Shown piece by piece: positions 3,159 through 47,926 of a DNA stretch of 47,926 nucleotides (its first letter is position 1; every line of letters begins with the position of its first letter). This DNA comes from an uncultured bacterium (GTDB lineage Bacteria; Patescibacteriota; Minisyncoccia; Phycocordibacterales; UBA11359). Made by a program: the position numbers and the translations under genes. The notes under the pieces are model-generated. The model had not been told where the DNA came from, did no database searches, and saw nothing but the letters and a program-made list of their open reading frames with translations. The stretch is from the NCBI GenBank assembly GCA_903831815.1, contig CAIKZC010000003.1, forward strand, positions 1 through 47,926, in the 5' to 3' direction.

Positions 3159-3164
3159 ATTATT

Positions 3165-4526
3165 ATGGATTACACAACATATTTCAAAGGCAAGAAAATT
3201 ACGGTCATGGGTCTGGGACTTCTCGGAAGAGGCTTGGGAGTAGTTAAATTTTTGGCTGAATGCGGTGCTGATTTGTTGGTGACCGATCTAAAAACCAAAG
3301 AGCAACTTGCTCCAAGTCTAGCAGAATTGTCGAATTATAAAAATATAACTTTCATCTTAGGCGAACATCGTTTGGAAGATTTTCGAGACGGAGATCTGAT
3401 TATAAAAGCGGCCGGGGTTCCACTTAATTCTATTTATGTTGCCGAGGCGGTTTTGCATGGTGTGCCGGTCAAAATGGAATCATCTCTTTTTGCCAAGTTT
3501 ACCAAAGCGACTTTGATTGGTGTGACAGGCACGCGCGGCAAATCAACAACCACGCATTTTATCTATGAATCGCTAAAAAAATTCTATAAAAATGGCAAGG
3601 TTTTTATCGGTGGAAATGTTAAAGGTATCGCAACTTTGCCGCTTTTAAAAGAAGCCGACAAAAATGATGTTGTGGTTTTGGAGCTCGATTCATGGCAGCT
3701 GCAAGGCTTTGGAGACGAAAAAATAAGTCCTCATATCGCCGTGTTCACCAATTTTTTGCCGGATCATTTGAATTATTATATGAAAAATGGTGATTCCGAA
3801 GCGTATGCTATGGAATTATATTTTAGCGACAAGGCCAACATTTTTAGACATCAAAATAAATCGGATTATCTGATCGTGTCCGGAGAAATGGCTCATTATA
3901 TAGTTAAAAAATATCCATTATTACAATCGGAGATCGTGGCAGTGACTGAAAAAGATTTGCTTCCTGATTGGCACTTGAATATTCCGGGTGAACACAATCG
4001 AGAAAATTTGGTTTTGGGTGCGTCAGTGCTACGCGTTATTGGTTGTTTGGAAGATGAAATAAAATTAAGCGTGGAAAGTTTTAAGGGTGTGTCTGGACGG
4101 CTTGAATTGATTAGAGAGAAGGATGGTATTAAAATTTTTAATGATACGACATCTACCACTCCTGTAGCCGGGATTGTCGCTCTTAAATCTATCGGTAATA
4201 TCGATAAAAAAAATATTGTGTTGATCATGGGAGGAGCAAATAAACAGATTGATATGATTGATTTAATAAATATTTTGCCGCAGTACTGCAGTACGGTGGT
4301 TTTATTGCCTGGCACCGGCACTGATACAGTAAGAGAAAAGATCAAAAAAAATGTGTCTCAAACGATTGAAGTGGATAATTTGCAAGATGCTGTTTCAAAA
4401 GCCATGAATGCGGCCAAAACAGGAGACATTGTCTTATTTAGTCCAAGCTTCGCTTCTTTTGGATTATTTCAAAATGAATTTGATCGAGGTGAACAATTTG
4501 AAAAATTGATAAAAAATTTGAAATGA
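3165..4526 (+). CDS. murD: UDP-N-acetylmuramoylalanine--D-glutamate ligase (MurD)
   Basis: Start moved to the internal ATG 3165 (MDYTTYFKGKKITVMGLGLLGRG) because 3078-3158 is tRNA-Leu. Has an N-terminal Rossmann-like GLGxxG and the Mur ligase P-loop VTGTRGKSTT. ATGA overlap with murC. Confidence 0.9.
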   Translation: MDYTTYFKGKKITVMGLGLLGRGLGVVKFLAECGADLLVTDLKTKEQLAPSLAELSNYKNITFILGEHRLEDFRDGDLIIKAAGVPLNSIYVAEAVLHGVPVKMESSLFAKFTKATLIGVTGTRGKSTTTHFIYESLKKFYKNGKVFIGGNVKGIATLPLLKEADKNDVVVLELDSWQLQGFGDEKISPHIAVFTNFLPDHLNYYMKNGDSEAYAMELYFSDKANIFRHQNKSDYLIVSGEMAHYIVKKYPLLQSEIVAVTEKDLLPDWHLNIPGEHNRENLVLGASVLRVIGCLEDEIKLSVESFKGVSGRLELIREKDGIKIFNDTTSTTPVAGIVALKSIGNIDKKNIVLIMGGANKQIDMIDLINILPQYCSTVVLLPGTGTDTVREKIKKNVSQTIEVDNLQDAVSKAMNAAKTGDIVLFSPSFASFGLFQNEFDRGEQFEKLIKNLK

Positions 4527-6118: not shown

Positions 6119-8026
6119 ATGTCACATCAAGATGAAGAAAAAGTAACGTACTTTGCCGAAACCGACTCTCGAAATAAACGTGTACCATTTGGTATTAAGG
6201 CCAAGGATAGGACGCGTCATATTTACGTAATTGGAAAAACAGGTATGGGTAAGTCCACCTTGCTTGAGAATATGTGTATTCAGGATATCAATAATGGCAA
6301 TGGTCTATGCTTTATTGATCCACACGGTAAAACAGCCGAACTCTTTTTGGATTATGTTCCGGAGCATCGCATTAAAGATGTTCTGTATTTTGCGCCGTTT
6401 GACATGGATTTTCCGATTTCTTTTAATGTGATGGAAGATGTTGGACCGGATAAACGACACTTAGTTGTGAGTGGCTTGATGAGCGCTTTTAAAAAGATTT
6501 GGGTGGATGCCTGGTCGGCTCGCATGGAATACATTTTAAACAACACCCTGTTGGCTCTCCTCGAATATCCTGGTGCGACACTTCTTAGTGTCAACCGCAT
6601 GCTCGCCGACAAAGACTATCGCAAAAAAGTTGTTGATCATATTTCCGATCCGTCGATTAAAGCTTTTTGGGTTGATGAATTTGCCAAATACACCGAACGT
6701 TTTGCAGCTGAAGCGACTCCGGCCATTCAAAATAAAGTTGGGCAATTTACTTCCAATCCTTTGATTAGAAATATTATCGGTCAACCAAATTCGACTTTTG
6801 ATATTCGCAAGATGATGGATGAGAAAAAGATTATTATTGTGAACTTGTCCAAAGGTTTGGTGGGGGAGACCAATGCCAATCTGCTCGGAAGCATGCTCAT
6901 TACCAAAATATATTTGGCCGCTATGAGTCGCGCCGATGTCTCACAGCATATTCACAAATTACCGAACTTTTATTTGTACGTCGACGAGTTCCAATCTTTT
7001 GCCAACGAAAGTTTTGCCGATATTTTGTCGGAAGCCCGCAAGTATAAGTTGAATTTGACGATCGCTCACCAGTATATTGAACAAATGCCGGAAGAGGTAC
7101 GCGCGGCGGTTTTTGGTAACGTCGGTACGATGATTACGTTCCGCGTCGGTGCTTTTGATGCGGAAGTTTTGGAAAAAGAATTCGCGCCATATTTTGAAGC
7201 GCAGGATTTGGTCAACCTCGGTTTCGTTCAAATTTATTTGAAGCTCATGATTGATGGCATTAGTTCGCAACCATTTTCCGCTCGCACGCTCCCGCCGATT
7301 GACAAGCCGATCGTCTCTTTCAAAAAAGCTATCCTCGACAACTCACGTGCCATGTTTGCTCGACCGCGTGCCGAAGTCGAAGCTAATGTGCGCGATTGGC
7401 ATGATGATGGGCATTCGGTCAAAAAAAATCCGACTACTACCGCACCTATGCCCACACCAAAATCGGCAACAACTATCACGCCTAATTCAACGAATTATTC
7501 ACGTATTGCACCAGTCCACTCGACGCCTGTGGCGGCTCCCAAAGTTGCTCCAAATCCTATACTTCCAAAATCTCAACCGCCCGCTCCGGAAGTTAAAAAA
7601 CCAGATAATGCCGGAAATTCTGTTTCGCATCACCTTGCGGCCAATAATCATCAAAATAAGGCCTTTTTGAAGCCTGATGACGTTCAAAGTGCCATTGCAA
7701 GAGGCGATTTGGCCGTTGTTGATATACCACGAAACGGTGCTGTAAAGGCGCCCAAAAAAGTGGATGATAAAGGTCCAAAACCGGAAAATGTAAATGCATT
7801 GCGTAACGCTTTGTCGTCGGTGCTCAGTGAAATAAAGGAGAAAGAAAAGGGTAAGGAGACCAAAAACATTCCTGATATTTCTAAAAAGACAACTTCAGAG
7901 AAAAGAGACGAAAATCCGATAACTTCAAAAAAATCTTCAGACCATTCACAAAACCCACAATTAAAACAAGACAAAAAACCCAACGAAGTCCCTGAGGATG
8001 TTTTGAGAAAGATTCTTGATAATTAG
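6119..8026 (+). CDS. TraD/TraG/VirD4-like (type IV coupling protein-like) P-loop ATPase with long disordered Pro/Lys-rich C-terminal tail
   Basis: Walker A VIGKTGMGKST and Walker B-like FYLYVDEFQSF. LNLTIAHQY and GNVGTMITFRVG are typical of TraD/VirD4-type DNA-binding ATPases. The last ~230 aa are low complexity (P, K, S, N rich). No N-terminal TM segment. Confidence 0.8.
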   Translation: MSHQDEEKVTYFAETDSRNKRVPFGIKAKDRTRHIYVIGKTGMGKSTLLENMCIQDINNGNGLCFIDPHGKTAELFLDYVPEHRIKDVLYFAPFDMDFPISFNVMEDVGPDKRHLVVSGLMSAFKKIWVDAWSARMEYILNNTLLALLEYPGATLLSVNRMLADKDYRKKVVDHISDPSIKAFWVDEFAKYTERFAAEATPAIQNKVGQFTSNPLIRNIIGQPNSTFDIRKMMDEKKIIIVNLSKGLVGETNANLLGSMLITKIYLAAMSRADVSQHIHKLPNFYLYVDEFQSFANESFADILSEARKYKLNLTIAHQYIEQMPEEVRAAVFGNVGTMITFRVGAFDAEVLEKEFAPYFEAQDLVNLGFVQIYLKLMIDGISSQPFSARTLPPIDKPIVSFKKAILDNSRAMFARPRAEVEANVRDWHDDGHSVKKNPTTTAPMPTPKSATTITPNSTNYSRIAPVHSTPVAAPKVAPNPILPKSQPPAPEVKKPDNAGNSVSHHLAANNHQNKAFLKPDDVQSAIARGDLAVVDIPRNGAVKAPKKVDDKGPKPENVNALRNALSSVLSEIKEKEKGKETKNIPDISKKTTSEKRDENPITSKKSSDHSQNPQLKQDKKPNEVPEDVLRKILDN

Positions 8027-22199: not shown

Positions 22200-24485
22200 A
22201 TGACATTCAATAGATCACTATTTTTTACAGTCGTCGGTTTGTTATTTGCGGTATTATTCATCCCTCTTTTTGTCACTAATAGTTTATTTTTCCCGTATAT
22301 TACGGGTAAAAACTTCGCGTTTAGGATCATTGTTGAGCTTGCCTCGTTGGCTTGGATAATGCTCATTCTGCGAGACAAAAGCTATCGTCCGAAACTGAAC
22401 GGACTTTCGATCGCAGTTTTGATTTTTGCGATCATAGTTGGTGTTGCCGATATTTTTAGCAGTAATCCGCTAAAAAGTTTTATCAGCAACTTTGAACGAA
22501 TGGAAGGCTGGATTACCATTGCCCATCTTGCGTTATATTTTTTCCTTTTGACAGCTGTTTTGCGATCTTGGGATTTTTGGAAAAGACTATTTCAAACATC
22601 AGTCGCTGTTAGCGCAATAGTTTGCATTCAGGGTTTTATGCAATTTGCCGATCCGACAGCTCAAAGCGGTCCTCGCATCTATGCAAGTTTTGGTAATGCG
22701 ACCTACTTGGCAGTCTATATGTTGTTTCATATATTTATCACGCTTATCCTTTTGGCTCGCCATTTAAAAAATCGTAAAGAGAACACAAAAAGTCTTTGGT
22801 CTTCAAAATATTGGTATACCGATTTCGCCGTTTATATATATCTCATCCTTATGGTCTTGCAGACTATCATTCTTTTTCTAACCGCCACCCGAGGTTCCAT
22901 TTTGGGTCTCATTGGAGGTTTATTCCTTACCGGTATCGTTGTTGCAATTACCGAAAAAGAGCATAAGATTTTACGAAAAATTTCCATCGGCATCATAATA
23001 GTTATTTTTGCGATCGTCGGGACATTCTTTTTGGTCAAAAACACTTCATTTGTAAAAAATAACGTAACTCTTGGACGATTGGCTTCTATTTCTGCGACGG
23101 ATAACACAACAAAAGCTCGTTTCATGATCTGGAATATGGCATGGGATGGAGTGATTTCGAGCCCAAAACATTTCGTGATTGGTTGGGGACAGGAGAGTTT
23201 CAATTATCTTTTTGCCGCATATTACAATCCGGGAATGTACGGTCAGGAGCAATGGTTTGATCGCGCGCATGATATTGTTTTTGATTGGTTGACCGCCGCA
23301 GGTGTACTTGGTTTATTGTCATATCTTTCTATCTTTGTCATGACGCTATACGGTATTTGGCGAAAGTCCAATTTCTCCAGTTTGGAAAAAGGTTTGCTAA
23401 CCGGATTGCTGGCTGGTTATTTCTTTCACAATTTATTCGTGTTCGACAATATCACGAGTTACATTTTGTTCTTTATGATCTTGGCGTATGTTAATTCGTT
23501 CAATAAAAAAATTGATGAACCGATTCACAACGCGCAGAAAAAAGAAGGAAAAGAAATTAATCTTTCATTCCAATATGCGGGAATGATCTTGGCTGGCATA
23601 GCTTTTGTTGTTGTGTTCTATCAATATGATTATAAACCGATAACAGCCAATCTCGATCTCATAAAATCTTTGACTCAAACTCAGATCGTATCCGCCAATT
23701 CTTCATCAAATAATGTTTATACCGAAGAAAATGTGAATGATTTCAAAGAAGCTCTCTCTTTAAACACTATCGGCTTGTATGAAACTCGCGAACAATTGTT
23801 GGATGTTGCAGTAAAATCGGTGGGTTCAAATTCTGATAATGCGGTCAAAAAGGATCTAGTGACTTTGGCGGAGTCGGAATTATCAAAACAGCTGAAAGAA
23901 ACGCCGAATGACGTTCGGTATTATGTGCTAGGCGGTAATTTCTTACAAAATCTTGGAGATTATAAAAATGCCGGAATGCTTTTGACTAAAGCAAAACAAC
24001 TTTCTCCGAATAAACAAAGTCTTTTATTCGCCTATGGTTCGAATCAGTTTGCTCTGAAACAATATACCGATGCTTTGGCGACCTTTAAAAAGGCATATGA
24101 GTTGGATAAAAGTTTTACGGAAGCCAAAAATCTCTACGCTCTGGTCGCGCTTTATGTCGGTCAAGAAGATATAACGAACAGTCTCCTTGGTCCAGGTCCG
24201 ATCATGGATCCGAGATTTTTGGCGGCCTACAAAGAGACAAAACATTATGATCTTATGATGGCATATTTGGAAAAAACTGTGGCTTCAAATCCACGTGATA
24301 TTCAAGGGCAAGTTTCTCTTGCTGCGGGCTATGTGGCGATTGGAAATCGCACGAAAGCGGTGGCGACGTTGCAATTCTCAAAAACATTAACGGTCGATAA
24401 AGGAATTCAATCTCAAATCGACAGTTTTATCAAAGATATTCAGGCGGGTAAAAATCCTTTTGAATCGACTACTACCGCGCAATAG
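22200..24485 (+). CDS. O-antigen ligase/polymerase-like (Wzy_C) polytopic membrane protein with C-terminal TPR domain
   Basis: Many TM helices. LTATRGSILGL and RAHDIVFDWLTAAGVLG resemble the Wzy_C/O-antigen-ligase signature. The last ~250 aa contain TPR-like repeats (YKNAGMLLTKAKQLSPN, YTDALATFKKAYELD). Confidence 0.8.
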   Translation: MTFNRSLFFTVVGLLFAVLFIPLFVTNSLFFPYITGKNFAFRIIVELASLAWIMLILRDKSYRPKLNGLSIAVLIFAIIVGVADIFSSNPLKSFISNFERMEGWITIAHLALYFFLLTAVLRSWDFWKRLFQTSVAVSAIVCIQGFMQFADPTAQSGPRIYASFGNATYLAVYMLFHIFITLILLARHLKNRKENTKSLWSSKYWYTDFAVYIYLILMVLQTIILFLTATRGSILGLIGGLFLTGIVVAITEKEHKILRKISIGIIIVIFAIVGTFFLVKNTSFVKNNVTLGRLASISATDNTTKARFMIWNMAWDGVISSPKHFVIGWGQESFNYLFAAYYNPGMYGQEQWFDRAHDIVFDWLTAAGVLGLLSYLSIFVMTLYGIWRKSNFSSLEKGLLTGLLAGYFFHNLFVFDNITSYILFFMILAYVNSFNKKIDEPIHNAQKKEGKEINLSFQYAGMILAGIAFVVVFYQYDYKPITANLDLIKSLTQTQIVSANSSSNNVYTEENVNDFKEALSLNTIGLYETREQLLDVAVKSVGSNSDNAVKKDLVTLAESELSKQLKETPNDVRYYVLGGNFLQNLGDYKNAGMLLTKAKQLSPNKQSLLFAYGSNQFALKQYTDALATFKKAYELDKSFTEAKNLYALVALYVGQEDITNSLLGPGPIMDPRFLAAYKETKHYDLMMAYLEKTVASNPRDIQGQVSLAAGYVAIGNRTKAVATLQFSKTLTVDKGIQSQIDSFIKDIQAGKNPFESTTTAQ

Positions 24486-35505: not shown

Positions 35506-38500
35506 ATGCGTAATTTTAAATTTGGTTTGATCTTCCTTGTTTTAGTTGCCGCTGTTGCTTTAACTTTTTCATTAAATGCTCTGGCTCAAACCAATCCGGC
35601 TGGTTCTCCAAAAGGAGCGATCACTTCTGCGACCTGCGATCAAATTACAGGTTGGACGTGTGATCCGGATAGAAATAATACCGCCTTATCGTATATGATT
35701 TATGACGGCAATTCTGCTATAGGGATTCCTCATATTGCAAATACTCAAATCGTAAACAGCTTTGGTCTTTGTGGAGGTAATTATGTGCAATCTTTCGGTA
35801 TAAATACACCGGCAGTCTTTAAAGACGGTAACACCCACAATTTAAATGTATACGGAATTAATATTGCCGGAACACCCGGACAAGATGCGTTACTAACCAA
35901 TTCACCGACACCAATCACGTGTGTTACGTACAAACCGGATATATTGGCGACCGATGTGGCTCCCATTGTCGGACCTGTGATCGGAGTTTATAACAATATC
36001 AGCGCTAATTTTACTCTTGGATATGGTGTTCAAAAATATGTCACTGCACTTTTGCAAAAAGCCGATGACATAAACGGTACAAATCCTGTTGATGTTAGTA
36101 CCGGACAGAGTTGGATAGATTCCAATTTTTTAGACCATAGAGTTCAAGGCTTTTCAATACCTTTGCCGTCATACACCTTCACATCTACGAGCACATATTA
36201 TTTCCGCACCTGTGTTGATAAAAGTGCAAAGGCAGATGTAAGCGGTGTGGTTGATGAATCTAATGAAAATAATAATTGCACCAGCTGGTATGCGGCCACA
36301 GTAAGAGCTCCGGATTTAGTAGCAAGCGCCATAAGCAAAATGCCTTCGATTTATGTTAATGCGCCAACTACACTATCTAGCAATGTTACCAATCAAGGCA
36401 CGCTTGATATCAGTTCAGGTAATCCTCTAACAACTTTGTTTCAAAAAGCTGATGATGCAATCGGTACGAATGCGGCTGATATCGGCACTTCAGTAAATAA
36501 TAATCCTGTCTTGTTGATGAATGATTTTAAGACTTTTAATTTCTCATATACCTTCACAAATGTTGGAACGTATTATATAAGAGCTTGTGCTGATAAAAGC
36601 ACTGCGCAAAATGGTGGTAATTTTACCGAATTGAATGAAGGAAATAATTGCGGGGCATGGACTGCGGTAACAGTAACTAATCCTCCTCCAACTTTAACTT
36701 TTACTGCTGCTCCGAGTTCAATCCCTACTGGAAATTCTTCAACCCTAACTTGGAGTTCATCCAATACAACGATTTGTAATGCTGATTCACCTTCATGGAC
36801 CAATTCGACAGCAATTTCTGGTACACAAAATGTTAGTCCGACTGTAACAACTACATATTCAATTACTTGCACAGGCCAGGGCGGCAGTATAACTAAAACA
36901 GCAACAGTGACGGTATCTGCATTGCCTGTTAATGGTGTTTGTGCAACAACTCACTATGTTTGTACGTCCGGTAATTCTGTTCCAGGAACAGATACTGCAA
37001 CTAAATATGTTTGGTCATGTACTGGTATAAATGGCGGAACAGACTCTCAGCCATGTAACGAGAACAAGACTCAACCGATCGGTGATTTTGATTACTCGCT
37101 TTCTGTTGGGGCTGCCAATATGCAATCCGGTCATTTAGTTGTCGCCAAAAATCCGTCACCATCCCAAACAGTAACTGGCGATGTTTCAATCATAAAAACA
37201 TTATTAAGTGGTAATGCGGAAGAGGTTACTCTTTCTGCAATAAATTTGCCGGCCGGAATTAGTGTTACCCATATTTTAAACAACCCTTCATACCCAAATA
37301 TTAATCAAGGTATAAATTATGATAGCAACATAGCACTGACAATTGATTCATCAGTACAACCATCAACTTATACAATTACGATTAATGGTTTGTCTACGAG
37401 CGGTTTGAATAGGACAACCACGTTTTCGTTGATGGTTAATCCACCTGCAGCATGTCCAGCCGATAAAGTGCTAGACGCTAACGGTCAATGTGTATGCCCA
37501 GTGGGCCAAGTGTTGAATGGTAATGGCATATGCACAACATTATACTACTGTCATGACGCACAAGGCGGGAACATGGGACCGAGCCAAGGAAATATAAACG
37601 GTGTTGTTTGTCCAAATTCAGTTTCAACATTTCCGACAAACGACAATACATACTGGACGTATGTAAGTTCATGCCCACAAACTCCAACGGCTTGTAAGTA
37701 TTATTGTCCTGCCAATACAAATTGGAATGGCACAATTTGTGAACCAATAGTGGGTCTTCCTGATCTGACTTCCACCGATTTTGTCACTCCGACATCAGTT
37801 ATTGCAGGTTCTCCGGTCCAATTTTCCGGAATAATTAAAAATATTGGTACAGGTCCAATTCCTAACGGAACACAATTTGTAAGTACTTTCCAATTAGCTG
37901 ATTCTTATAATTCTCAAACCGGTAATGTCTCATTAAATACCGTAGGTGATGCTGCTCCAGATGGACTTATCGGAGGACAGAGATGGGATAATGGTATGCT
38001 TTCAGGTGATTCACAGGCTATTGTTGCGCAAAAAAGTTGGACTCCTTCTGTAGAAGATATTGGTAAAACAAAATATGTTCGTTTGTGCGCTGATACCGCT
38101 AAAGTGATGTGGGATGAAAAAGGTGATTGGTTCAATCGTATTAAAGAATCAAACGAAAGTAACAATTGTAGTCCTTGGACCACCATTACGATTTTAGATG
38201 TAAATCAGCCGATCAATGGTGTTTGTTCGACAACTCATTTCAATTGTTCTGCCGGCACCAATCTCGAATCGAGTGATCTGGAAACGACCAGTGGATATTC
38301 TTGGACATGTAAAGGAGTAAATAATGGCACAGATGCAAATTGTCTAGAAACGAAGACTGTGCTTCCGCCGGGTGATTGTCCTGTCGGAAGTCCGACACCG
38401 GAGATGTGTGCTGCGAAGGGTCAAACCTATCAAAACTGCGTTTGCGTAAATGGCGGAGTAAATCCACCGCCAACTATCTCTTGCCGTGCGTCAGTGGGGG

Positions 38501-38763
38501 GAGATTCGAGCGCAACCGGTGCTTACGTCGGACAAACGGTAATTTGGACGGCAAATAACCCCGCTGTTTCGTGGAGCGAAAATCAAAGCGGTACTCCTAT
38601 TCTAGGAACTGGGCAAACATATTCAGTACAATATGTTAAGATAGGTAAAAAAACGATGTATGCAAGCTTGGGAGGTGTTATTGCACAATGCACAGTTGGT
38701 GCTTCAAATCCGCCAAAAATGACAATACTCATAACTAACAATCCGAATTCGGGGGAAAATTAG
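35506..38763 (+). CDS. Large secreted Cys-rich surface protein with CARDB-like and Ig-like repeats
   Basis: Signal peptide MRNFKFGLIFLVLVAAVALTFSLNALA-Q. Three CARDB-type modules end in ESNENNNCTSW / ELNEGNNCGAW / ESNESNNCSPW. There is an Ig-like module (TLTWSSSNTTIC...YSITCTGQGG). Two copies of an NGVC.TTH..C..G....W.C.G.NGGTD module are also present. Confidence 0.8.
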   Translation: MRNFKFGLIFLVLVAAVALTFSLNALAQTNPAGSPKGAITSATCDQITGWTCDPDRNNTALSYMIYDGNSAIGIPHIANTQIVNSFGLCGGNYVQSFGINTPAVFKDGNTHNLNVYGINIAGTPGQDALLTNSPTPITCVTYKPDILATDVAPIVGPVIGVYNNISANFTLGYGVQKYVTALLQKADDINGTNPVDVSTGQSWIDSNFLDHRVQGFSIPLPSYTFTSTSTYYFRTCVDKSAKADVSGVVDESNENNNCTSWYAATVRAPDLVASAISKMPSIYVNAPTTLSSNVTNQGTLDISSGNPLTTLFQKADDAIGTNAADIGTSVNNNPVLLMNDFKTFNFSYTFTNVGTYYIRACADKSTAQNGGNFTELNEGNNCGAWTAVTVTNPPPTLTFTAAPSSIPTGNSSTLTWSSSNTTICNADSPSWTNSTAISGTQNVSPTVTTTYSITCTGQGGSITKTATVTVSALPVNGVCATTHYVCTSGNSVPGTDTATKYVWSCTGINGGTDSQPCNENKTQPIGDFDYSLSVGAANMQSGHLVVAKNPSPSQTVTGDVSIIKTLLSGNAEEVTLSAINLPAGISVTHILNNPSYPNINQGINYDSNIALTIDSSVQPSTYTITINGLSTSGLNRTTTFSLMVNPPAACPADKVLDANGQCVCPVGQVLNGNGICTTLYYCHDAQGGNMGPSQGNINGVVCPNSVSTFPTNDNTYWTYVSSCPQTPTACKYYCPANTNWNGTICEPIVGLPDLTSTDFVTPTSVIAGSPVQFSGIIKNIGTGPIPNGTQFVSTFQLADSYNSQTGNVSLNTVGDAAPDGLIGGQRWDNGMLSGDSQAIVAQKSWTPSVEDIGKTKYVRLCADTAKVMWDEKGDWFNRIKESNESNNCSPWTTITILDVNQPINGVCSTTHFNCSAGTNLESSDLETTSGYSWTCKGVNNGTDANCLETKTVLPPGDCPVGSPTPEMCAAKGQTYQNCVCVNGGVNPPPTISCRASVGGDSSATGAYVGQTVIWTANNPAVSWSENQSGTPILGTGQTYSVQYVKIGKKTMYASLGGVIAQCTVGASNPPKMTILITNNPNSGEN

Positions 38764-40796: not shown

Positions 40797-41546
40797 ATGG
40801 CAAAAATCCTCGATCTTCGCAAAAAAGTCGAACCTCAAGTCAAGGTTATCTACCGCACCATCACTACTCGTCAACCTTGGTATGTCGAGCTTTCTAAAGT
40901 CCTAGCGGTCATTGCTATTGTCACCACTGTTGTTTGGGGTATTACCAAAGCTGATGTGCCAGTCTCAGCCAAAAGCTGGAGTGCCATTGGTCTAGTTGCT
41001 ACCACTACTGACACAACTATCTCTATAGATAACGCTCGCAGTTCCGAGAACGCTTCCACCACCGAATACTCTTTTGACATCTCTTCCATTTCTAAAGTCG
41101 AGACCAATAAATACGAACCCCTTATATTATCCGACCTCAAGACAGGGGACAAAGTCATCATTCAGGGCACGATCGAAAACGACACCATGATTGCTCGTCG
41201 TGTCATTGCATTTATCTCTAGTACTACCGCAACCACAACTACTGCCACCAGTACCGAAACTTTGGCCACGACTACCGTATCAACAGATATCGCTACCAGC
41301 ACAGCCAGCACCACCACTGAAGTGGCCACTTCCACGCCAGATGTTTCCACTTCGACCGACTCGATCGCAACGACTACCGACACTACTACGGACGATCCAA
41401 CTTCCACCACTACCGACCCTGTTGCCACCACTACACCTGAAGTTGTGACCGAATCTACTGCTACCACCACAGAAGACGTTACTCCTCCCGCTACCACCCC
41501 AGAAACCACTTCCGACACATCATCAACCACCGAAAATAATATTTAA
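40797..41546 (+). CDS. Membrane-anchored protein with Thr/Ser/Ala-rich (mucin-like) C-terminal half
   Basis: N-terminal TM anchor VLAVIAIVTTVVWGI, a small beta-rich domain, then ~110 aa of T/S/A/P/D/E low complexity. Its stop is 2 nt before the next ATG. Confidence 0.7.
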   Translation: MAKILDLRKKVEPQVKVIYRTITTRQPWYVELSKVLAVIAIVTTVVWGITKADVPVSAKSWSAIGLVATTTDTTISIDNARSSENASTTEYSFDISSISKVETNKYEPLILSDLKTGDKVIIQGTIENDTMIARRVIAFISSTTATTTTATSTETLATTTVSTDIATSTASTTTEVATSTPDVSTSTDSIATTTDTTTDDPTSTTTDPVATTTPEVVTESTATTTEDVTPPATTPETTSDTSSTTENNI

Positions 41547-41548
41547 AA

Positions 41549-44500
41549 ATGAATCTGTTTAAAACAACAAAACGTCTTTTTCTCGGAATGACCCTCATCA
41601 TTCCTTTGTTGTTCCTTGCTAACACCGTTTACGCCGATGGTGTCATCCTCCCAGATGAAAGCGGTACCACCACTATCACTACTTGTGGTGAACTAGCTTA
41701 CCCAGGTATTTACATTCTGGACGACTCCACCAACTCCTTTGACGCTACCGGCCCTTGCTTCACCATCTCCTCTCCCGGAGTCATCATTCAAAGTTCCGAA
41801 CTAGCTCTAGAAGGCGACATCAATGCCGATGCTACCACTACTCCCGGTCAAAACGGTTTCAGTTTCACTGTCGCCAGCACCACTTTAGATGGAGTTATTA
41901 CTTCCAATGGCGGCACCGGTGGCGCTTTTGGTACCACGACTTTTAGTGGGGATGCGGCTCTTGGAGGCATTGTTTATGGTAATGCCGCATTCAATGATCA
42001 AAGTCACTTTGTTGATCAAGGTTACAACTATGGTAACGTTATGTACAACGCCATTTTCAATACGAATTACTACGATCCAATTATCCCATCAAATGGCACG
42101 TTTAATATTAGTATTCATAATTGGCTTGCATATGTCTGGGGCACCACTTACGGCGCTGACAATCAGCCGATCAACGATTACGTTTTTAGTGGTACCATTT
42201 ACAATGGTGGTTATGCTCCCGGCAATATTACTTTCAATGATGACACTGTTAACCAAATGAGTGTGTACGGCCTCCCCCCAGGTTGGCCAAGTGTTATCAC
42301 TTTCACACCTCCAGCTGCGTCCGGATTACCGCCACAAGTTTTGACCTGGGATCCTGCTTTCGGAGAATGGCTTACTCCAAATGAAATTGATAATTCAAAT
42401 GATTGGAATTATATCAACGATGGTTTCGAAGCTTTTATTGGTGGCGAATATTTTGAAATTTATCACACCCTTGCCTCTAATGGAAATAGGGATTGGGACC
42501 TCTCAACCAATTTTACTTCATTTGATCAATTGACCAGTTCTTTATGGAGTGTTAGTGCAGACGATGCAAACTGGGGTAGTGATGGTATGCAGTGGCAAGG
42601 TACAGAATATTCGATTAAGGATGTTTTCAATGTAACTTTCAATGACTATAGTTCCAACCGAGCCTTTAATCAAGGTAGCACAATTTTTAACGATTCGAGC
42701 ACAAATCAAGCTAATTTAGTTGGCGATGTTACTTTCAATAGCTCGGTGGTCAACAGAAGTTATATTTATGGTCATGCTACTTTCAATGATTCAAGCCACA
42801 ATGCCAACAATGGTCACATAATCGGCACTGCTACTTTCAATGATTCAAGTTATAATCAAGGTCAAATAAACGGCACCACTACTTTCAACCCGACTGTTTC
42901 GAATTGGACGAAAGTACTTGGAATGGATTCAAATCAGTGGCAGTCGATAGCTTCAAATGCTACCGGAGATAAATTGGCTGCCGTTAATGATAGAGGTGAT
43001 GGCTCTATCTGGATGTCTTCTGACTATGGGGCAACTTGGACAGAGGCGACAACCAGTATTAGTGGATCATACTATTGGTATTCAATCACCTCAAACGTTG
43101 CAGGAGACAGGTTAGTTGCTATTGATGATAACGATGGCGGTTCCATCTGGGCGTATTCAACTTCAACGGGTGTTTGGATAATTGTTCCCGACACCGCTAT
43201 GGAAGGTGGTTGGACCTCAATTGCTTCAAATGCAACAGGAGACAGATTGGTTGCTTCGGAATATAATGGTGGTTCCATTTGGACTTCTTCAGATTGGGGT
43301 GCTCATTGGAATAAAGCAAACAATACTGATAATAATGGAGATTCCGAATGGAACTATGTTGCTTCTAACGCTGCAGGAGATAGATTGGTCGCGGTAGATT
43401 ATAATCGTTCCATCTGGACATCGGATAACTTTGGTGATTCATGGAAAGAAATCACCGGTGTTAATGGATTTAACTGGTATTCAATCACTTCAAATGTCGT
43501 CGGAGATAAGTTGGCTGCCGTTGAATATGACGGTTCCATCTGGACATCGTCTAACTATGGTGATGTTTGGACAAAAGTTCCAAACACTGTGGCTCAAGGT
43601 GGTTGGACCTCCATTGCTTCAAACTCTACAGGTGACAAGTTGGTGGCAGTTCAGGACGATGGTAACGGTGTTGGATCTATTTGGACTTCTTCAGATTACG
43701 GTGCTCATTGGGAGAAAAATTCCGGCACTCCTGGTAGATGGACTTCAATCGTTTCGAACGCCGCCGGTGATAGGTTAACGGCTGGAACTTTTAGTGATTA
43801 TAGAAATAACGGTTCCATCTGGACTCACGTTGACGGTCAAACTCCAACTTACTCTCAAAAAAGTTACAATACCGGAACCATAAGCGGTGACGCTATTTTC
43901 ACGTCACCGGTTTATTCATATAACAGTCATTTTGGTGATGGTGGTTTCAATCCACAAAATGGCACCGTAAGTGGTAACACATATTTCACACCGACTGGCA
44001 CTTCAACCATCACTTTCAACATTGGTACTTTGGGACAAGATGACACTTGTGGTGGATCTGCTTGTTCCTGGACAAGCGATCTTTCGGATTTTAACTTCGG
44101 CACTTCATCCATGATCTTCAATTTTTATGGAAATAGTTATAACGGTGGTTCTGCTACCGGCACCGCCAACTTTTTTGATGATAGTTATAATGGTGATCAA
44201 TACGGTAATTGTGTTTACGGAAATGCCTTTTTCAATGACCGAAGTTATAACGCTGAGAAAGGTGTAGTTGTAAATGATTCCACTTTCAAAACTACTTATT
44301 ACAGCACAACCACCCCTGCTAATGGAACATTTAATATTAGTTTAAATGATTTTGGTGGATATCTATATGGTACTATATACGGCTCTGACGGTCAGCCAAT
44401 CACCAATTATATTTTTAGTGGTGATATTGAGAATCGTGCAACTATCGGAAATATTTCTAATGGCGACAATTTTATTTTCAATGATAATAGTGTTAACCAT

Positions 44501-47500
44501 GGCAATATCGATGGTCTCCCGGTGGGTTGGCCAAGCGTCATTACTTTTACGCCTCCGGTCGCTTCCGGTTTGCCGCCGCAGACTTTGACATGGAATCCTG
44601 CCTATGAGGAATGGCTGACACCAGGCTTATGTGACAATCCTGAGGACTGGAATTATATTAATCCGGGATTTGAGGCATGGGTTGATGGAACTAGTTTTGA
44701 ATTAGTTGATGTTTCTGTCGAGGGAGACAACAATTATATTATTAAGTTATTCAGTCCTTCCTTTAGTAATATGTCCGGTAACTATACTATTCAGAAAGAT
44801 AATTTTAACTGGGGTGCTACTGGGATGAAAATTGAGGGCACCGGATATTCAGACAAATATGTTGCCAACGTAACTTTCAACAATGATAGTGATAATTATC
44901 AAAATATCGTGGGAGCCAACGTAACTTTTAATGACTCAAGTCATAACGGTGAAGGCAATATTTCTTATTCGAATATATTCTTTCGTGACAACAGCTTCAA
45001 CTCTAATGATATTAGTAACAATAATATTGATGTATACTATCCCGCAGTCAAACCTCTCGGTGGTATTATAATAGGCACTGTCCGTTACCACGGCTATCCA
45101 GGTTTCTATTTCAATGACCAAGCTGTCGGTGCCGCAGGGGACGGTGATTGGAACAATCCTCTCAATTGGTGGTCAGATGATGCTTTCATAACTCCGGCAG
45201 GTGGTATACCAACCGCTAGCGATGAAGTGTATGTGTATAGTAACGTCTCTACAAGTACCGGTATTACAGCGGCTGAAGCTCAAACTGTCACTTTTGAAAA
45301 CGGAACTAGAAATAATATTTCTATTATCACCCCGAATGGTGCTGTTTTCAATGCCACTTCAACTAACAATGGTGATATTACAGGCGATACCACTTTCACT
45401 GATGACGCCTCGAATAATAATGGAACAATAAATAGTACGCTGTGGACAATAGGTAAGGGTCCTGGAAATAGTATTGGATCTGTTGCTTCGAATGCCGCCG
45501 GAGACAGATTGGTTGCCACTGAGGACTATAATGGTTCCATTTGGACTTCTTCGAACTACGGTCTTGATTGGACCGAGGCCACAGGTACTAGCGGACATGT
45601 ATGGGGATCCGTTGCTTCGAATGCTGCCGGAAACAGATTAGTTGCCATAAATAAAGACAACGGTAGATCTATATGGTCATACTCAGATGCTTCCGGTATT
45701 TGGACAGAATTACCAGATACCAGAGGATTATTATGGTCATCAATTGCTTCAAATGCCGCCGGAGACAGGCTGGTTGCAGCTACTCAGCCTGGCAGTATCT
45801 GGGAATATTCAGATTCGACTGGTATTTGGACTGAAATGCCAGGTACAAGCGGACACAATTGGAATTCAATAACTTCAAACGCCGCCGGAGATCGATTGGC
45901 TGCTACAGCTTTTGATTCCATTTGGAAATATTCAGATGATACTGGTATTTGGGAAAGAATGTCTAGTCAAAATGCATTAGGATATTTGACATCTATTACA
46001 TCAAATTCCGTAGGAGATAGATTCGCTGCTGCAGATTTTTCTCATCGAACTATTTTTACATATTCTGATTCAGATGGGATGTGGAAACAAATACCTGGTG
46101 CTAATGGGAAAGATTGGGTCTCAATCGCTTCAAATGCCATCGGAGATAGATTAATTGCAGGAGCATCTTACGGTTTTATTTGGACTTCTTCAGATTATGG
46201 CGTTCATTGGACAAGAGCTTCTGGATTGGGTCCAGGTTACTGGTATTCGGTTGCTTCAAATGCAGCGGGAGATCGCTTGGTTGCAGAGGATGATAACAGT
46301 GGGGTATGGGTACATGAATTAAACGACAACTCCGGCCCCGTCACCCGTCTCTTCACCACTTCAGTCGCAACGGTAAGAAACTTCCTCACGGAAGGAGGAC
46401 GCAACAACTGGATAGTCATTGCTCAAAACGCCGTCGTCGATCTCACCAACGCCATCTACTCAAGAGTCACCAACATCTTTAAAGCACTTGGCAATGGTTG
46501 GTTCATCACTAACCCAACAATTGACAACGGCGCCTCAGTCACTCCGCAAATCACCATCACAAGTCCTACCGAAGGCACAGTGACTAAATGGCTACCTAAT
46601 ATCAACTGGGACACTGGCACCAGCACTTGCGAATACAAGCTAGACGACGCCAACTACACTCCACTCGATTGCACCAAGAACGGCTCTGACATTCCGAAAC
46701 CAACTGTCGGCTCACACATCCTCTTCATTCAAGGTATTGACTCTCTCGGCAACGCCACCGAAAAAACCGTTTCCTTCACATATGACAACACAGTGCCAAC
46801 CTACACTCTCTGCGGTACTGATCTACTCGACGAACCAACTCGTCCATACTACTACCTACAATCCAATATCACCGGCAACTGTTCTGCTACCTACAACAAC
46901 GCTTCTCTTCACGGCAACATCTCCGCAACTGGCACACCATATACTCTAACCGGCAACGTCTCTGCTCCAGGCCTTAATCTCTCACTAAGCAACATCATTG
47001 TTACCGGTTCAGTTTCTTCTTCTAAACTAAATACTCCAGGAACCAATGCCGGTAACCTCAACATCACATACTCCACAATCACTTCCATTACCGCAGACGG
47101 ATCCAATGGCAACAGTACTCTAAACGGCGGTAACGGCGGCAACATCACGATCGCAACCTCTACCACAGGCACTGTCTCTTCTAACGGTGGTGATCCACAA
47201 CACAACGGTGGAAATGGTGGAAGCATCACACTCATCAACACCAAGTCTATCTCTGACAACACACCGGTCAGTGCACAAGGTGGTGACTCGACTGGTTGCG
47301 GCTACGGCGGCTCCGGTGGTGACGTCATTCTTATCAATTCTTCGAGTTACATCATCCAAAACAACAAGGGAGCTGATCACGTCACCGGTTCATGCTCTCC
47401 AAGTGGACACGGTGGTCAAAACGGTACAAGTCACATTACCGGTACCTACACTCCACCCGGATATACACCTCCATCTACCCCTCGCGTTCCTTCTTCCAAC

Positions 47501-47926
47501 AACGGCGCCTCATATGCCAGCCCATTCTACTTCGGCTCCTCAACCTCTCTCATCCTTCCGGTTGCTAACGTCAAACCCCTCTCCCTTACCACACTCCCAA
47601 TCTTCAACGGCACTGGCATCAACGCCTTCTCATTTGATACCGCTATCAGAAACTTCATCTTCGCTCCAATCTCTTCCACTCTCACCAAATACCTTGGCAA
47701 ACAACTTTCTACCTATTTCACTAACCTCGGCCTCATCACTACCCAAGATCTCTTCAACACTCGCACCACACCACTTCCTCTCACTATCCCAGAGAAGAAA
47801 TCTGACATCCCAGACGGTTTACTTATGCTCTCCATCAACGGCACCTCAATCCCTACCACCGCCTCCTACGACAGCGCACACCTTCTAATCGAGAAAGCTT
47901 CCGTCCCATTTGGCTCACTCCTTACC
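41549..47926 (+). CDS. Giant secreted surface protein, 5' part only (>2126 codons, open at window end); not present in the supplied ORF track
   Basis: I translated frame 2 by hand from ATG 41549 to 47926 (6378 nt = 2126 codons) and found no in-frame stop. I re-checked the frame at more than 30 line boundaries. Signal peptide MNLFKTTKRLFLGMTLIIPLLFLANTVYA-DG. FND(S/D)S.N repeats, two blocks of seven Asp-box-like blades, and a Gly/Asn-rich C-terminal region are present. Confidence 0.88.
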   Translation, partial: MNLFKTTKRLFLGMTLIIPLLFLANTVYADGVILPDESGTTTITTCGELAYPGIYILDDSTNSFDATGPCFTISSPGVIIQSSELALEGDINADATTTPGQNGFSFTVASTTLDGVITSNGGTGGAFGTTTFSGDAALGGIVYGNAAFNDQSHFVDQGYNYGNVMYNAIFNTNYYDPIIPSNGTFNISIHNWLAYVWGTTYGADNQPINDYVFSGTIYNGGYAPGNITFNDDTVNQMSVYGLPPGWPSVITFTPPAASGLPPQVLTWDPAFGEWLTPNEIDNSNDWNYINDGFEAFIGGEYFEIYHTLASNGNRDWDLSTNFTSFDQLTSSLWSVSADDANWGSDGMQWQGTEYSIKDVFNVTFNDYSSNRAFNQGSTIFNDSSTNQANLVGDVTFNSSVVNRSYIYGHATFNDSSHNANNGHIIGTATFNDSSYNQGQINGTTTFNPTVSNWTKVLGMDSNQWQSIASNATGDKLAAVNDRGDGSIWMSSDYGATWTEATTSISGSYYWYSITSNVAGDRLVAIDDNDGGSIWAYSTSTGVWIIVPDTAMEGGWTSIASNATGDRLVASEYNGGSIWTSSDWGAHWNKANNTDNNGDSEWNYVASNAAGDRLVAVDYNRSIWTSDNFGDSWKEITGVNGFNWYSITSNVVGDKLAAVEYDGSIWTSSNYGDVWTKVPNTVAQGGWTSIASNSTGDKLVAVQDDGNGVGSIWTSSDYGAHWEKNSGTPGRWTSIVSNAAGDRLTAGTFSDYRNNGSIWTHVDGQTPTYSQKSYNTGTISGDAIFTSPVYSYNSHFGDGGFNPQNGTVSGNTYFTPTGTSTITFNIGTLGQDDTCGGSACSWTSDLSDFNFGTSSMIFNFYGNSYNGGSATGTANFFDDSYNGDQYGNCVYGNAFFNDRSYNAEKGVVVNDSTFKTTYYSTTTPANGTFNISLNDFGGYLYGTIYGSDGQPITNYIFSGDIENRATIGNISNGDNFIFNDNSVNHGNIDGLPVGWPSVITFTPPVASGLPPQTLTWNPAYEEWLTPGLCDNPEDWNYINPGFEAWVDGTSFELVDVSVEGDNNYIIKLFSPSFSNMSGNYTIQKDNFNWGATGMKIEGTGYSDKYVANVTFNNDSDNYQNIVGANVTFNDSSHNGEGNISYSNIFFRDNSFNSNDISNNNIDVYYPAVKPLGGIIIGTVRYHGYPGFYFNDQAVGAAGDGDWNNPLNWWSDDAFITPAGGIPTASDEVYVYSNVSTSTGITAAEAQTVTFENGTRNNISIITPNGAVFNATSTNNGDITGDTTFTDDASNNNGTINSTLWTIGKGPGNSIGSVASNAAGDRLVATEDYNGSIWTSSNYGLDWTEATGTSGHVWGSVASNAAGNRLVAINKDNGRSIWSYSDASGIWTELPDTRGLLWSSIASNAAGDRLVAATQPGSIWEYSDSTGIWTEMPGTSGHNWNSITSNAAGDRLAATAFDSIWKYSDDTGIWERMSSQNALGYLTSITSNSVGDRFAAADFSHRTIFTYSDSDGMWKQIPGANGKDWVSIASNAIGDRLIAGASYGFIWTSSDYGVHWTRASGLGPGYWYSVASNAAGDRLVAEDDNSGVWVHELNDNSGPVTRLFTTSVATVRNFLTEGGRNNWIVIAQNAVVDLTNAIYSRVTNIFKALGNGWFITNPTIDNGASVTPQITITSPTEGTVTKWLPNINWDTGTSTCEYKLDDANYTPLDCTKNGSDIPKPTVGSHILFIQGIDSLGNATEKTVSFTYDNTVPTYTLCGTDLLDEPTRPYYYLQSNITGNCSATYNNASLHGNISATGTPYTLTGNVSAPGLNLSLSNIIVTGSVSSSKLNTPGTNAGNLNITYSTITSITADGSNGNSTLNGGNGGNITIATSTTGTVSSNGGDPQHNGGNGGSITLINTKSISDNTPVSAQGGDSTGCGYGGSGGDVILINSSSYIIQNNKGADHVTGSCSPSGHGGQNGTSHITGTYTPPGYTPPSTPRVPSSNNGASYASPFYFGSSTSLILPVANVKPLSLTTLPIFNGTGINAFSFDTAIRNFIFAPISSTLTKYLGKQLSTYFTNLGLITTQDLFNTRTTPLPLTIPEKKSDIPDGLLMLSINGTSIPTTASYDSAHLLIEKASVPFGSLLT
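42930..43835 (+). repeat. Seven tandem Asp-box/BNR-like beta-propeller blades (propeller 1)
   Basis: Seven repeats of W.SI(A/T)SN..GD(K/R)L.A...(G)SIW(T)S.(D/N).G..W, e.g. SSDYGATW, SSDWGAHW, SDNFGDSW, SSNYGDVW, SSDYGAHW. Confidence 0.7.
45467..46320 (+). repeat. Seven tandem Asp-box/BNR-like beta-propeller blades (propeller 2)
   Basis: Seven repeats of the same consensus, e.g. SVASNAAGDRLVAT...SIWTSSNYGLDW, SIASNAAGDRLVAA...SIWEYSDSTGIW, SIASNAIGDRLIAG...IWTSSDYGVHW. Confidence 0.7.

Follow-up and report, generated by a model that had tools for sequence, protein, structure and literature searches.

Large beta-rich repeat proteins of more than 1500 aa have been recorded as adhesin-like in Parcubacteria (OD1), in a generic, one-sentence description without a defined family, a domain map, a C-terminal domain or a gene cassette (Nelson & Stegen 2015, PMC4508563). 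The giant protein analysed here, encoded at one end of the window (the whole 47,926-nucleotide stretch of DNA under study), resembles those proteins in clade (as judged by its relatives), size class, beta-sheet repeats, internal duplications and a putative role in attachment. Large proteins of this type are therefore already known from Patescibacteria; the three-gene cassette to which this one belongs is described nowhere in the literature covered by our limited search.

As giant modular adhesins anchored at one end, the RTX adhesins (SiiE, LapA, MpIBP type), the Gram-positive fibrillar adhesins and Apilactobacillus Giant1-5 were also compared. Shared with these are an export signal, a long rod built of repeated beta domains, some of them Ig-like (with a Foldseek match to SiiE BIg), putative binding modules along its length and a conserved region at one terminus that would serve retention. 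Unlike in them, no RTX repeats, T1SS signal, LPXTG, autotransporter barrel or known anchor domain was detected in the giant protein; its export would depend on a Sec signal peptide, and the candidates for anchoring it are two small membrane proteins that lack annotation. Pfam and NCBIfam searches returned no LPXTG/sortase, autotransporter, RTX/T1SS, T9SS CTD or PEP-CTERM domains, either in the giant protein, whose own C-terminus is missing, or in the full-length homolog P0005, and no LPXTG, autotransporter, RTX, T9SS CTD or PEP-CTERM motifs were seen in homolog C-termini. In neither database did the giant protein, its partners or the C-terminal domain match a family of known adhesins, anchors or sorting signals. 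Short periodic beta-strand repeats are shared with autotransporter/PATR beta-helix passengers and bactofilin-type beta-helices, and one homolog (P0037) is labelled an autotransporter-associated beta-strand repeat protein. Unlike in autotransporters, however, no translocator domain was detected in the giant protein, and its source organism is probably monoderm-like. The Omnitrophota giant proteins (bioRxiv 10.1101/2023.11.21.568195) are likewise very large, contain beta-helices and are predicted to lie on the surface of ultra-small bacteria, and, as here, assemblies break up within them; they are, however, 10-20 times larger with many enzymatic domains, and no sequence relationship to them was detected.

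The features of the locus are given below, with aa numbers from the giant protein except where the partner is described.

40797..41546, + strand: upstream cassette partner, 249 aa, with a basic N-terminus, TM at ~aa 29-50, an ~80-aa beta domain and a Thr/Ser-rich tail
41549-47926, + strand: giant gene, a single open frame of 2126 codons, open at the contig end
41549..41635, + strand: predicted signal peptide, aa 1-29, with predicted cleavage between VYA and DG
41636..41917, + strand: N-terminal head, aa 30-123, with the CGELAxPGxY...C.xI motif of homolog N-termini
41918..42268, + strand: module 1 beta-solenoid-like FND-repeat region, aa 124-240, duplicate of aa 867-989 and matching homolog repeats
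42269..42598, + strand: orphan insert copy 1, aa 241-350, GWPSVITFTPPAASGLPPQVLTW...
42599..42922, + strand: FNDSS-type 18-residue repeats, aa 351-458 (repeat analysis, homolog matches)
42923..43903, + strand: Asp-box (BNR) beta-propeller 1, seven blades, aa 459-785 (Pfam, duplication, repeats, profile)
43904..44515, + strand: inter-module region and module 2 FND-repeat solenoid, aa 786-989 (duplication, homolog matches, AF2)
44516..44842, + strand: orphan insert copy 2, aa 990-1098
44843..45463, + strand: FND repeats and family-wide NWW domain, aa 1099-1305 (phmmer, AF2)
45464..46333, + strand: Asp-box beta-propeller 2, seven blades, aa 1306-1595, with mostly degenerate Asp boxes
46334..46543, + strand: conserved post-propeller small beta domain, aa 1596-1665, TRLFTTSVATVRNFLTEGGRNNW... 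(AF2 pLDDT >90)
46544..46798, + strand: Ig-like beta-sandwich, aa 1666-1750, KWLPNINWD...C.Y...C (AF2 pLDDT >90)
46799..47443, + strand: second cap motif CGTDLLDEPTRPYYYL and GNGG.IT beta-solenoid, aa 1751-1965 (invariant Gly/Cys columns, AF2)
47444..47578, + strand: Pro/Ser/Thr-rich linker, predicted disordered, aa 1966-2010 (AF2 pLDDT 28-36)
47579..47926, + strand: start of the conserved C-terminal domain, aa 2011-2126, cut by the contig end (AF2 pLDDT ~80)

The stretch 41549-47926 is a genuine gene for a repeat-built surface protein that is predicted to be secreted. An earlier note on this DNA had read an uninterrupted frame of more than 2126 codons running to the final base, and this is borne out by translation, which gave 2126 codons with no in-frame stop. 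In the six-frame translation the other five frames contain 52, 199, 88, 103 and 206 stops over the same stretch, so that the open frame is far beyond chance. The nearest in-frame stop on the 5' side is TAA at 41537, and the first possible start, ATG 41549, sits 2 nt past the stop of the preceding 249-aa ORF. The gene is truly absent from the track of open reading frames, as had been pointed out, but this is a technical artefact of the track's rule, which drops ORFs that run off a contig end, rather than biology; public gene calls on identical contigs include it as partial.

The signal peptide read in the earlier note is recognisable in the sequence, with three K/R in the n-region (MNLFKTTKRL), a hydrophobic core and the c-region NTVYA followed by DG; an A-x-A junction before D lies at the equivalent place in homologs. 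It is the sole hydrophobic stretch in 2126 aa, hydrophobic 19-aa windows being confined to aa 9-35 with no other TM segment, and the whole chain is therefore predicted to be exported. Judged by its sequence, the protein is extracellular, acidic (pI 4.2) and rich in Gly, Ser, Thr and Asn (43.6% together).

The proposed duplication of a module holds up well: aa 124-386 align with aa 867-1133 (47% identity, E 2e-66), and aa 466-760 with aa 1311-1589 (46% identity, E 3e-65). The head motif CGELAxPGxY...C.xI, which opens most family members, recurs at aa 1755-1790, and aa 42-172 match residues 36-166 of homolog P0004 by phmmer. The FND region of module 1 includes the motif NISIHNW..YGADNQPINDYVFSG. 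In the second module, aa 1099-1305 carry the NWW domain motif (YYP..PLGG..G...YHGYPG.YFND...DGDWNNPLNWW), match P0002, P0003, P0004, P0007 and P0011 (phmmer E 1e-28 to 1e-45) and are modelled by AF2 at pLDDT 80-94; no Pfam match was found for this region.

The FND repeats had been described as beta-helix-like. The 18-aa period, the periodic short strands predicted by AF2 (pLDDT 80-96 in the models, including aa 869-989, with lower values before aa 869) and the match of P0020 copies of the same repeat type to Pfam Bactofilin (8e-16) make such a fold plausible. However, the giant protein itself has no Pfam threshold match to beta-helix/bactofilin families, and the best Foldseek match of the solenoid to beta-helix adhesins was not significant (E 0.085), the top matches at this level being Hap, IgA1 protease and Ag43.

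Between the repeats of each module lies the insert that contains the GWPSVITFTPP.ASGLPPQ.LTW segment. The earlier note called this segment conserved. It does occur twice in the protein, in two nearly identical copies, but the insert is an orphan: it is missing from the collinear homologs P0002, P0003 and P0004, no homologs of the 110-aa sequence were found among 1.84 billion representative proteins, and copy 1 has no Pfam match. AF2 models copy 2 at a pLDDT of 34-60.

The Ig-like stretch and GNGG repeats proposed for the C-terminal part are both supported by the AF2 model of aa 1590-2126 (mean pLDDT 82.7), which predicts the Ig-like sandwich, a solenoid of periodic paired strands (pLDDT ~90), the disordered linker and the C-terminal domain. 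Foldseek places the Ig-like domain near the FN3-like CbhA, SiiE BIg and PKD domains (E ~0.01, target-normalised TM 0.55-0.63).

By sequence, the giant protein belongs to an unannotated family of modular Patescibacteria (Paceibacteria/Parcubacteria) proteins of 1,200-3,400 aa, whose members we label P0001-P0048. The 41 homologs (421-3362 aa) draw on one set of modules (head, FND repeats, NWW domain, Ig-like domain, GNGG solenoid, C-terminal domain) but differ in how many of each they carry, and propeller number ranges from 0 to 6 among relatives. The giant protein has both the signal peptide followed by the CGELAxPGxY head and the C-terminal block of the family, i.e. small beta domain, Ig-like domain, CGTDLLDEATRPYYYL cap, GNGG solenoid, P/S/T linker and C-terminal domain. 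This block is collinear with that of P0005 (E 4e-108), P0002 (9e-102) and the L015 ORF (9e-153), and invariant Gly and Cys columns run through its alignment (A1). The C-terminal domain ends in a tail with Trp/Phe and Lys/Arg in 29/29 full-length relatives; the amphipathicity of homolog tails is weakly above that of shuffles. Named homologs are Candidatus Parcubacteria or Pacebacteria, and the source organism, an ultra-small Patescibacteria (CPR) bacterium, probably belongs to the Paceibacteria/Parcubacteria class; the window is placed there indirectly, through the cassette's relatives, its gene content and a 23S with extra sequence.

The giant gene is the middle member of a cassette, preceded by a gene for a single-pass membrane protein of ~250-315 aa with a Thr/Ser-rich tail and followed by one for a 125-aa membrane protein, which here lies beyond the window. 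This order is conserved in all five homolog loci inspected. The window's own ORF at 40797-41546 shares homology with the upstream ORF in each of the five loci (phmmer E 1e-21 to 1e-35); these homologs, of 267-315 aa and without a Pfam family, lie directly 5' of the giant gene in four of the five, and one ORF further upstream in the other (L009). No Pfam or NCBIfam family was found for the window's own upstream partner. A scan of GTDB with the 125-aa partner recovered 36 loci; apart from a few, their titles read Paceibacterota, Taylorbacteria, Parcubacteria, Nomurabacteria or Minisyncoccia. Where enough upstream DNA was available, an ORF of 430-3017 aa ended just before the partner gene (22 of 24 loci), and some genomes carry two cassettes.

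The most likely reading, in which we place moderate confidence, is that the giant protein is an adhesin-like surface fibre, Sec-exported and retained at its C-terminus, with adhesion as its presumed role. The Sec signal peptide would export the whole chain. Duplication, AF2 and profile matches show that the mature chain strings together beta-rich modules: a cap; two modules in tandem, each of an FND region (solenoid-like by prediction), a 110-aa insert and a seven-bladed propeller; and then the small beta domain, the Ig-like domain, a further GNGG solenoid with its own cap, and the disordered P/S/T linker. The conservation of the family-wide C-terminal domain, with its Trp/Phe and Lys/Arg tail, suggests that it holds the protein at the envelope, and the two small single-pass membrane proteins flanking the giant gene may help it to do so. 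The rod would present its propellers and lineage-specific inserts as glycan- or protein-binding surfaces to a partner cell or substrate, and a role in episymbiont-host contact, as raised in the earlier note, can reasonably be inferred.

More tentatively, and with considerable doubt on our part, the cassette might be a dedicated Paceibacteria-wide surface-display system, in which the C-terminal domain and tail dock to the small partners and the shuffled propeller, solenoid and insert modules, among them the orphan insert known only from this protein, set host or substrate attachment in each lineage. If so, anchoring would proceed by a mechanism not described before, and the cassette would be a candidate determinant of host specificity in what is the largest CPR class.

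A secreted, acidic, beta-rich, Ig-containing protein with a conserved C-terminal domain might also be a structural envelope protein of the S-layer type, forming or decorating a regular surface layer, anchored by the C-terminal domain and the two membrane proteins, and binding no partner. The wide occurrence of the cassette in the clade and a neighbourhood rich in envelope genes (a CARDB surface protein, a teichoic-acid-like cluster and SecA) are consistent with this. We nevertheless think it improbable, since length is hugely variable, both among the ORFs beside the partner gene (430-3017 aa) and in the family (up to 3362 aa), modules are shuffled, some genomes have two cassettes and inserts are lineage specific; an architecture that varies in this way is met more typically among variable adhesins than in proteins that build a lattice.

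The propellers bear on whether the surface fibre we favour might instead be an enzyme. Two seven-bladed Asp-box propellers had been proposed, and 7 + 7 repeats with a period of 41-46 aa are present, with a Pfam BNR_6 match (E 1e-13) above the gathering score, which puts them in the BNR/Asp-box propeller superfamily (Pfam BNR_6 / PSII_BNR / Sortilin-Vps10 clan). The strict Asp box S-x-D/N-x-G-x-x-W is found in five blades of propeller 1 and two of propeller 2 (seven in total). Whilst a PDB search with the whole protein as a single sequence gave no match, a profile of five propellers matched GH74 (2cn3, E 1.5e-10), Ycf48 (5e-9) and sortilin (1.6e-8). Of the propellers that the earlier note named for comparison (sialidase, Vps10 and Ycf48), sialidases match more weakly (7e-5) than Ycf48 or sortilin-Vps10 chains, and more weakly than GH74. 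Sialidase/GH33 was rejected, as GH33 is six-bladed with an Arg triad and the propellers here have seven blades. The propellers share Asp-box blades of ~44 aa with GH74, Ycf48/HCF136 and the sortilin Vps10 domain, and the number of seven blades with Ycf48 and each GH74 domain, but differ from them in being beads strung along a chain of 2,200 aa.

A surface-displayed or secreted carbohydrate-active enzyme, acting on host cell-wall or environmental polysaccharide through catalytic propellers or beta-helices, would account for GH74 being the best PDB match. The beta-helix is also a common fold in polysaccharide lyases and hydrolases, being that of pectate lyases and of tailspikes, and the neighbours of P0004 include GH1- and GH10-like genes. 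We regard this reading as distinctly improbable. The match covers only the Asp-box blades, which the non-enzymes Ycf48 and sortilin share at similar E-values; GH74 needs an adjacent pair of seven-bladed propellers forming a cleft, an arrangement rejected here because the two lie ~520 aa apart; Pfam and NCBIfam detected no GH, PL or CE family in the giant protein; and some relatives have no propeller at all.

That the frame results from mis-joined repeats, or belongs to a decaying gene, is scarcely credible: although the gene is internally repetitive and the window contig, like every other contig carrying the locus, breaks inside it, there are no stops in 6.4 kb, three contigs independently assembled from other samples match the window at 100% identity across up to 5.87 kb of the gene, the internal DNA repeats are only 60-91% identical and hence not collapsible, and the protein is collinear with homologs along its full length.

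We searched for an overlapping contig that would extend the gene to its stop and found none, so the stop, C-terminal tail and 125-aa gene were not recovered. Collinear alignments to P0005, P0008, P0019 and the L015 ORF indicate that ~85-91 codons are missing, including those for the aromatic/basic tail, which would give a full length of ~2,215 aa; the window thus holds an estimated 96% or so of the codons.

The first point to note is that the frame is open throughout. Translation of positions 41549-47926 (+) gave 2126 codons and no stop, against 52, 199, 88, 103 and 206 stops in the other five frames, which confirms the uninterrupted frame that the earlier note had read from the ATG at 41549 to the end of the window. 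Upstream the frame is closed by a TAA at 41537, making ATG 41549 the first possible start, and this ATG sits 2 nt past the stop of the preceding 249-aa ORF. It had also been claimed that the supplied ORF track misses the gene. The track does show only short, overlapping ORFs here, but the reason is technical, since ORFs running off an end are omitted by design; public gene calls on identical contigs include the gene, as partial. Assemblies tend to break inside such giant genes, which are therefore hidden systematically by any ORF track that leaves out end-truncated ORFs. The window is itself a whole contig, 47,926 nt being the greatest length of any contig found with its proteins.

The frame is reproducible, since three contigs assembled from other samples match the window with 100% identity, their ends lying at window positions 43580, 47348 and 47417. 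Assemblies nonetheless fail inside the gene time and again; three further contigs, for which the listing gave no DNA, also break within it. The stop codon was not found in the contigs carrying the upstream neighbour, all of which break inside the giant gene. Exact DNA repeats are no obvious reason for the breaks, as the internal repeats of the gene are 60-91% identical. A scan of GTDB genomes with the last 600 aa of the protein gave no match, and a protein search with aa 1590-2126 for the continuation of the gene returned nothing above 52% identity.

The encoded protein starts with what reads as a typical Sec signal (aa 1-29), consisting of MNLFKTTKRL with three basic residues, a 15-residue hydrophobic core and the c-region NTVYA-DG, in keeping with the signal peptide proposed earlier. 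Across the whole protein, the Kyte-Doolittle value exceeds 1.6 in 19-aa windows in the signal region alone. The part within the window has a mass of 227 kDa, a pI of 4.2 and a Gly+Ser+Thr+Asn content of 43.6%. BLASTP of parts against parts aligned aa 124-386 with 867-1133 (47% identity, E 2e-66) and aa 466-760 with 1311-1589 (46% identity, E 3e-65), as expected for the two module copies that the earlier note had described. Both propellers comprise seven repeats spaced by 41-46 aa, with strict Asp boxes kept in five blades of propeller 1 and two of propeller 2; together with a match to BNR_6 (1e-13), this bears out a seven-bladed Asp-box propeller in each module. BNR_6 was the only Pfam family above threshold on the giant protein, NCBIfam gave no family, and a phmmer search of the whole protein against PDB sequences gave no hits. 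A profile built from five propellers of the family did reach PDB entries, namely GH74 xyloglucanase (1.5e-10), Ycf48 (5e-9) and sortilin Vps10 (1.6e-8), with trans-sialidase weaker at 7e-5.

Each module also carries an insert of about 110 aa, opened by the segment GWPSVITFTPP.ASGLPPQ.LTW:

42269-42598 (+): orphan insert copy 1, inside the giant protein, module 1
44516-44842 (+): orphan insert copy 2, inside the giant protein, module 2

The first ∼60 residues of the insert are ∼78% identical between the copies, compared with ∼46% in the flanks. The segment had been called conserved, which holds in so far as it is nearly identical in the two modules; the homologous proteins P0002, P0003 and P0004, although collinear with module 2, are without the insert block. 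The insert matched nothing in Pfam, and when a profile of the two copies was run with HMMER on 1.84 billion representative proteins, the five matches obtained were weak, repeat-driven and, on inspection, judged unrelated.

In an AF2 model of aa 780-1320, the FND-repeat regions and the conserved ‘DGDWNNPLNWW’ domain are confident (pLDDT 80-96), and the insert has a pLDDT of 34-60. The second half of insert copy 1 was repeatedly misaligned by MAFFT, so that the model had single-sequence information at that half. The top Foldseek matches of the module 2 model were the beta-helix adhesins Hap, IgA1 protease and Ag43, none of them significant (E ≥0.085). The evidence for the beta-helix-like character previously given to the FND repeats therefore consists of their 18-aa period, the pattern of predicted strands and a match to Pfam Bactofilin reached by the same repeats in the homolog P0020.

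The model of aa 1590-2126, made from an 18-sequence alignment (mean pLDDT 82.7), predicts in order a small beta domain, an Ig-like sandwich, a solenoid, a disordered linker and the start of a C-terminal domain. The sandwich (aa 1668-1749) was closest in Foldseek to FN3-like CbhA modules, SiiE BIg and PKD domains, with E about 0.01 and TM 0.55-0.63 on the target. The GNGG.IT repeats are modelled as a solenoid of paired short strands, the Pro/Ser/Thr linker is disordered (pLDDT about 30), and the start of the C-terminal domain is predicted to be helical and beta (pLDDT about 80). The model thus agrees with the Ig-like stretch and Gly/Asn-rich GNGG.IT region that had been read from the sequence.

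Searches of 5.8 billion proteins found 41 relatives of the giant protein, of 421-3362 aa and many on short contigs; the few named ones are ‘Candidatus Parcubacteria’ or ‘Pacebacteria’ MAG proteins with no functional names beyond generic domain labels. The relatives share building blocks in varying numbers and orders: a signal peptide and head, FND repeats, the NWW domain, Asp-box propellers (none to about six), Ig-like units, a capped GNGG solenoid, a linker and a C-terminal domain of about 200 aa. In collinear alignments, the last residue of the window falls 84-91 residues short of the ends of P0005, P0008, P0019 and the ORF at locus L015, the last being the best relative (49% identity over 546 aa). 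By this comparison, about 96% of the giant gene lies in the window, and the complete protein has an estimated 2,215 aa or so. A tail of 12-15 residues, rich in Trp/Phe and Lys/Arg, closes each of the 29 full-length relatives; amphipathic-helix analysis of these tails was weakly supportive, and no Pfam or NCBIfam model matched the tail or the preceding domain. A polymorphic toxin was rejected, as the C-terminus is the conserved, not the variable, part of the family.

The contigs of five relatives show the same gene order around the giant gene each time. Upstream, an ORF of 267-315 aa that matches nothing in Pfam ends 5-40 nt ahead of the giant gene, and downstream an ORF of 125-128 aa starts about 60 nt past it. 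The upstream gene has its counterpart in the window:

40797-41546 (+): upstream partner, 249 aa, with a basic N-terminus, one TM helix, a ∼80-aa domain and a long Thr/Ser-rich tail

At four of the five loci, homology to this partner is seen in the ORF directly upstream (30-44% identity, phmmer E 1e-21 to 1e-35); at the fifth, L009, the neighbouring ORF of 267 aa is divergent, at 22% identity, and a 342-aa ORF one gene further upstream is clearly homologous. The downstream proteins have an N-terminal TM helix and are 48-63% identical to each other. Scanning GTDB, at one genome per species, with an alignment of this 125-aa family yielded 36 loci, nearly all in Paceibacterota, Taylorbacteria, Parcubacteria, Nomurabacteria or Minisyncoccia MAGs, and a few labelled Saccharibacteria or Roizmanbacteria. 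Of the 24 loci with sufficient DNA upstream, 22 have an ORF of 430-3017 aa whose end lies just ahead of the 125-aa gene, and most of these ORFs bear the family C-terminal domain. Some genomes have two cassettes (L012 and L015; L029 and L030), as does one metagenome (L046 and L047). Clustered at 90% identity, the proteins of the 125-aa family in the collection searched form at least 697 clusters; among the best 120 listed, nearly all members are 125-128 aa, and the named ones are ‘hypothetical’ save one.

The window thus contains the first two genes of the cassette, the third having almost certainly been lost to the contig break. P0055, a member of the 125-aa family found, like the window's neighbour, on 11 contigs, was considered as a route to the missing stop codon and belongs to another organism. 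Scanning for promoters and terminators near the start of the cassette did no better than shuffles. At L046:8431-11535 (GROS21-1 scaffold_183), the cassette encodes proteins of 267, 1419 and 128 aa, with seven T4SS-pilin (PF18895) genes ∼2 kb downstream; a second cassette in that metagenome has an identical 128-aa protein. In one Paceibacterota genome (L023:2-9962) a tandem pair of giant-family ORFs has two upstream-partner homologs between, which suggests local duplication of the cassette. A limited literature search found no published description of the C-terminal block that defines the family, nor of the three-gene cassette or of the family of 125-aa partners.

The results directly establish a signal for export, a beta architecture built of modules, membership of the family and conservation of the cassette. 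Beyond these, we consider it reasonably probable that the giant protein is a Sec-exported, C-terminally retained, adhesin-like fibre. The Sec signal would export the protein, the C-terminal domain and tail, perhaps together with the two small membrane proteins, would retain it, and the propellers and inserts may do the binding. An S-layer or other structural role is unlikely; relatives vary extremely in length and in the order of their modules, there are multiple copies per genome, and inserts are lineage-specific, all of which favours a variable adhesin over a lattice protein. A glycan-degrading enzyme is rather less likely still, the likeness to GH74 being confined to the Asp-box blades, which are common to non-enzymes too. 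It is highly improbable that the gene is an artefact.

To our knowledge, partner recognition and attachment in Patescibacteria outside Saccharibacteria are essentially unknown, and work so far on attachment in the group centres on type IV pili. Large (>1500 aa) beta-rich repeat proteins have already been noted in Parcubacteria (PMC4508563), so a giant surface protein of this kind is expected here. A 2025 survey did not detect PrgB-type adhesins in Patescibacteria (PMC12102498); as the literature searched had no description of the cassette either, the locus is of moderate interest as a lead, whilst being no surprise. It offers a concrete and well-mapped case of a giant-protein family that is unannotated and to which two small and highly conserved partner genes are tied. 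Of these, the 125-aa gene is a simple genomic marker by which such loci can be found even in broken assemblies. The propellers, the orphan insert and the C-terminal domain are now available as defined domains to express and test.

The remainder of the window, together with the taxonomy of all cassette relatives, fits a Patescibacteria genome of the class Paceibacteria, an indirect placement. Positions 1-721 (+) are the 3' end of a 23S rRNA; these 721 nt cover just 437 Rfam model positions, which suggests an insertion of about 280 nt. Such insertions are often reported in CPR rRNAs. A tRNA (910-981, +), its anticodon unnamed by ARAGORN, lies between the 23S and the 5S rRNA (1176-1280, +). A tRNA-Leu(CAG) at 3072-3158 (+) overlaps the mechanically called GTG start of a MurD-like ORF (3078-4526), whose real start must therefore be further downstream. 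The window also encodes pyruvate kinase, Mur ligases, MurB, SecA, Asp/Asn-tRNA synthetase, enolase, a cupin-type glucose-6-phosphate isomerase and iPGM, along with:

6119-8026 (+): VirD4/TrwB/HerA-like coupling ATPase, 635 aa
8029-22142 (-): long, same-strand cluster for wall-teichoic-acid/glycopolymer-like synthesis and export
22200-24485 (+): O-antigen-ligase-like TPR protein, after the glycopolymer cluster on the opposite strand
35506-38763 (+): second large secreted protein, 1085 aa, with a signal peptide, CARDB repeats and Cys-rich segments

No other T4SS genes were found in the neighbourhood of the ATPase; Patescibacteria T4CP genes are reported to be mostly far from virB4 (PMC12102498). 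The glycopolymer cluster includes several GT2, GT4 and GT8 enzymes, an FkbM methyltransferase, a UDP-GlcNAc 2-epimerase, a 906-aa TagF-like glycerophosphotransferase with a methyltransferase domain, an IspD+SDR fusion (TarI/TarJ-like) and a Wzm/Wzt-type ABC transporter. The gene for the 1085-aa CARDB protein lies between those for enolase and iPGM, with glycolysis and surface-protein genes interleaved here.
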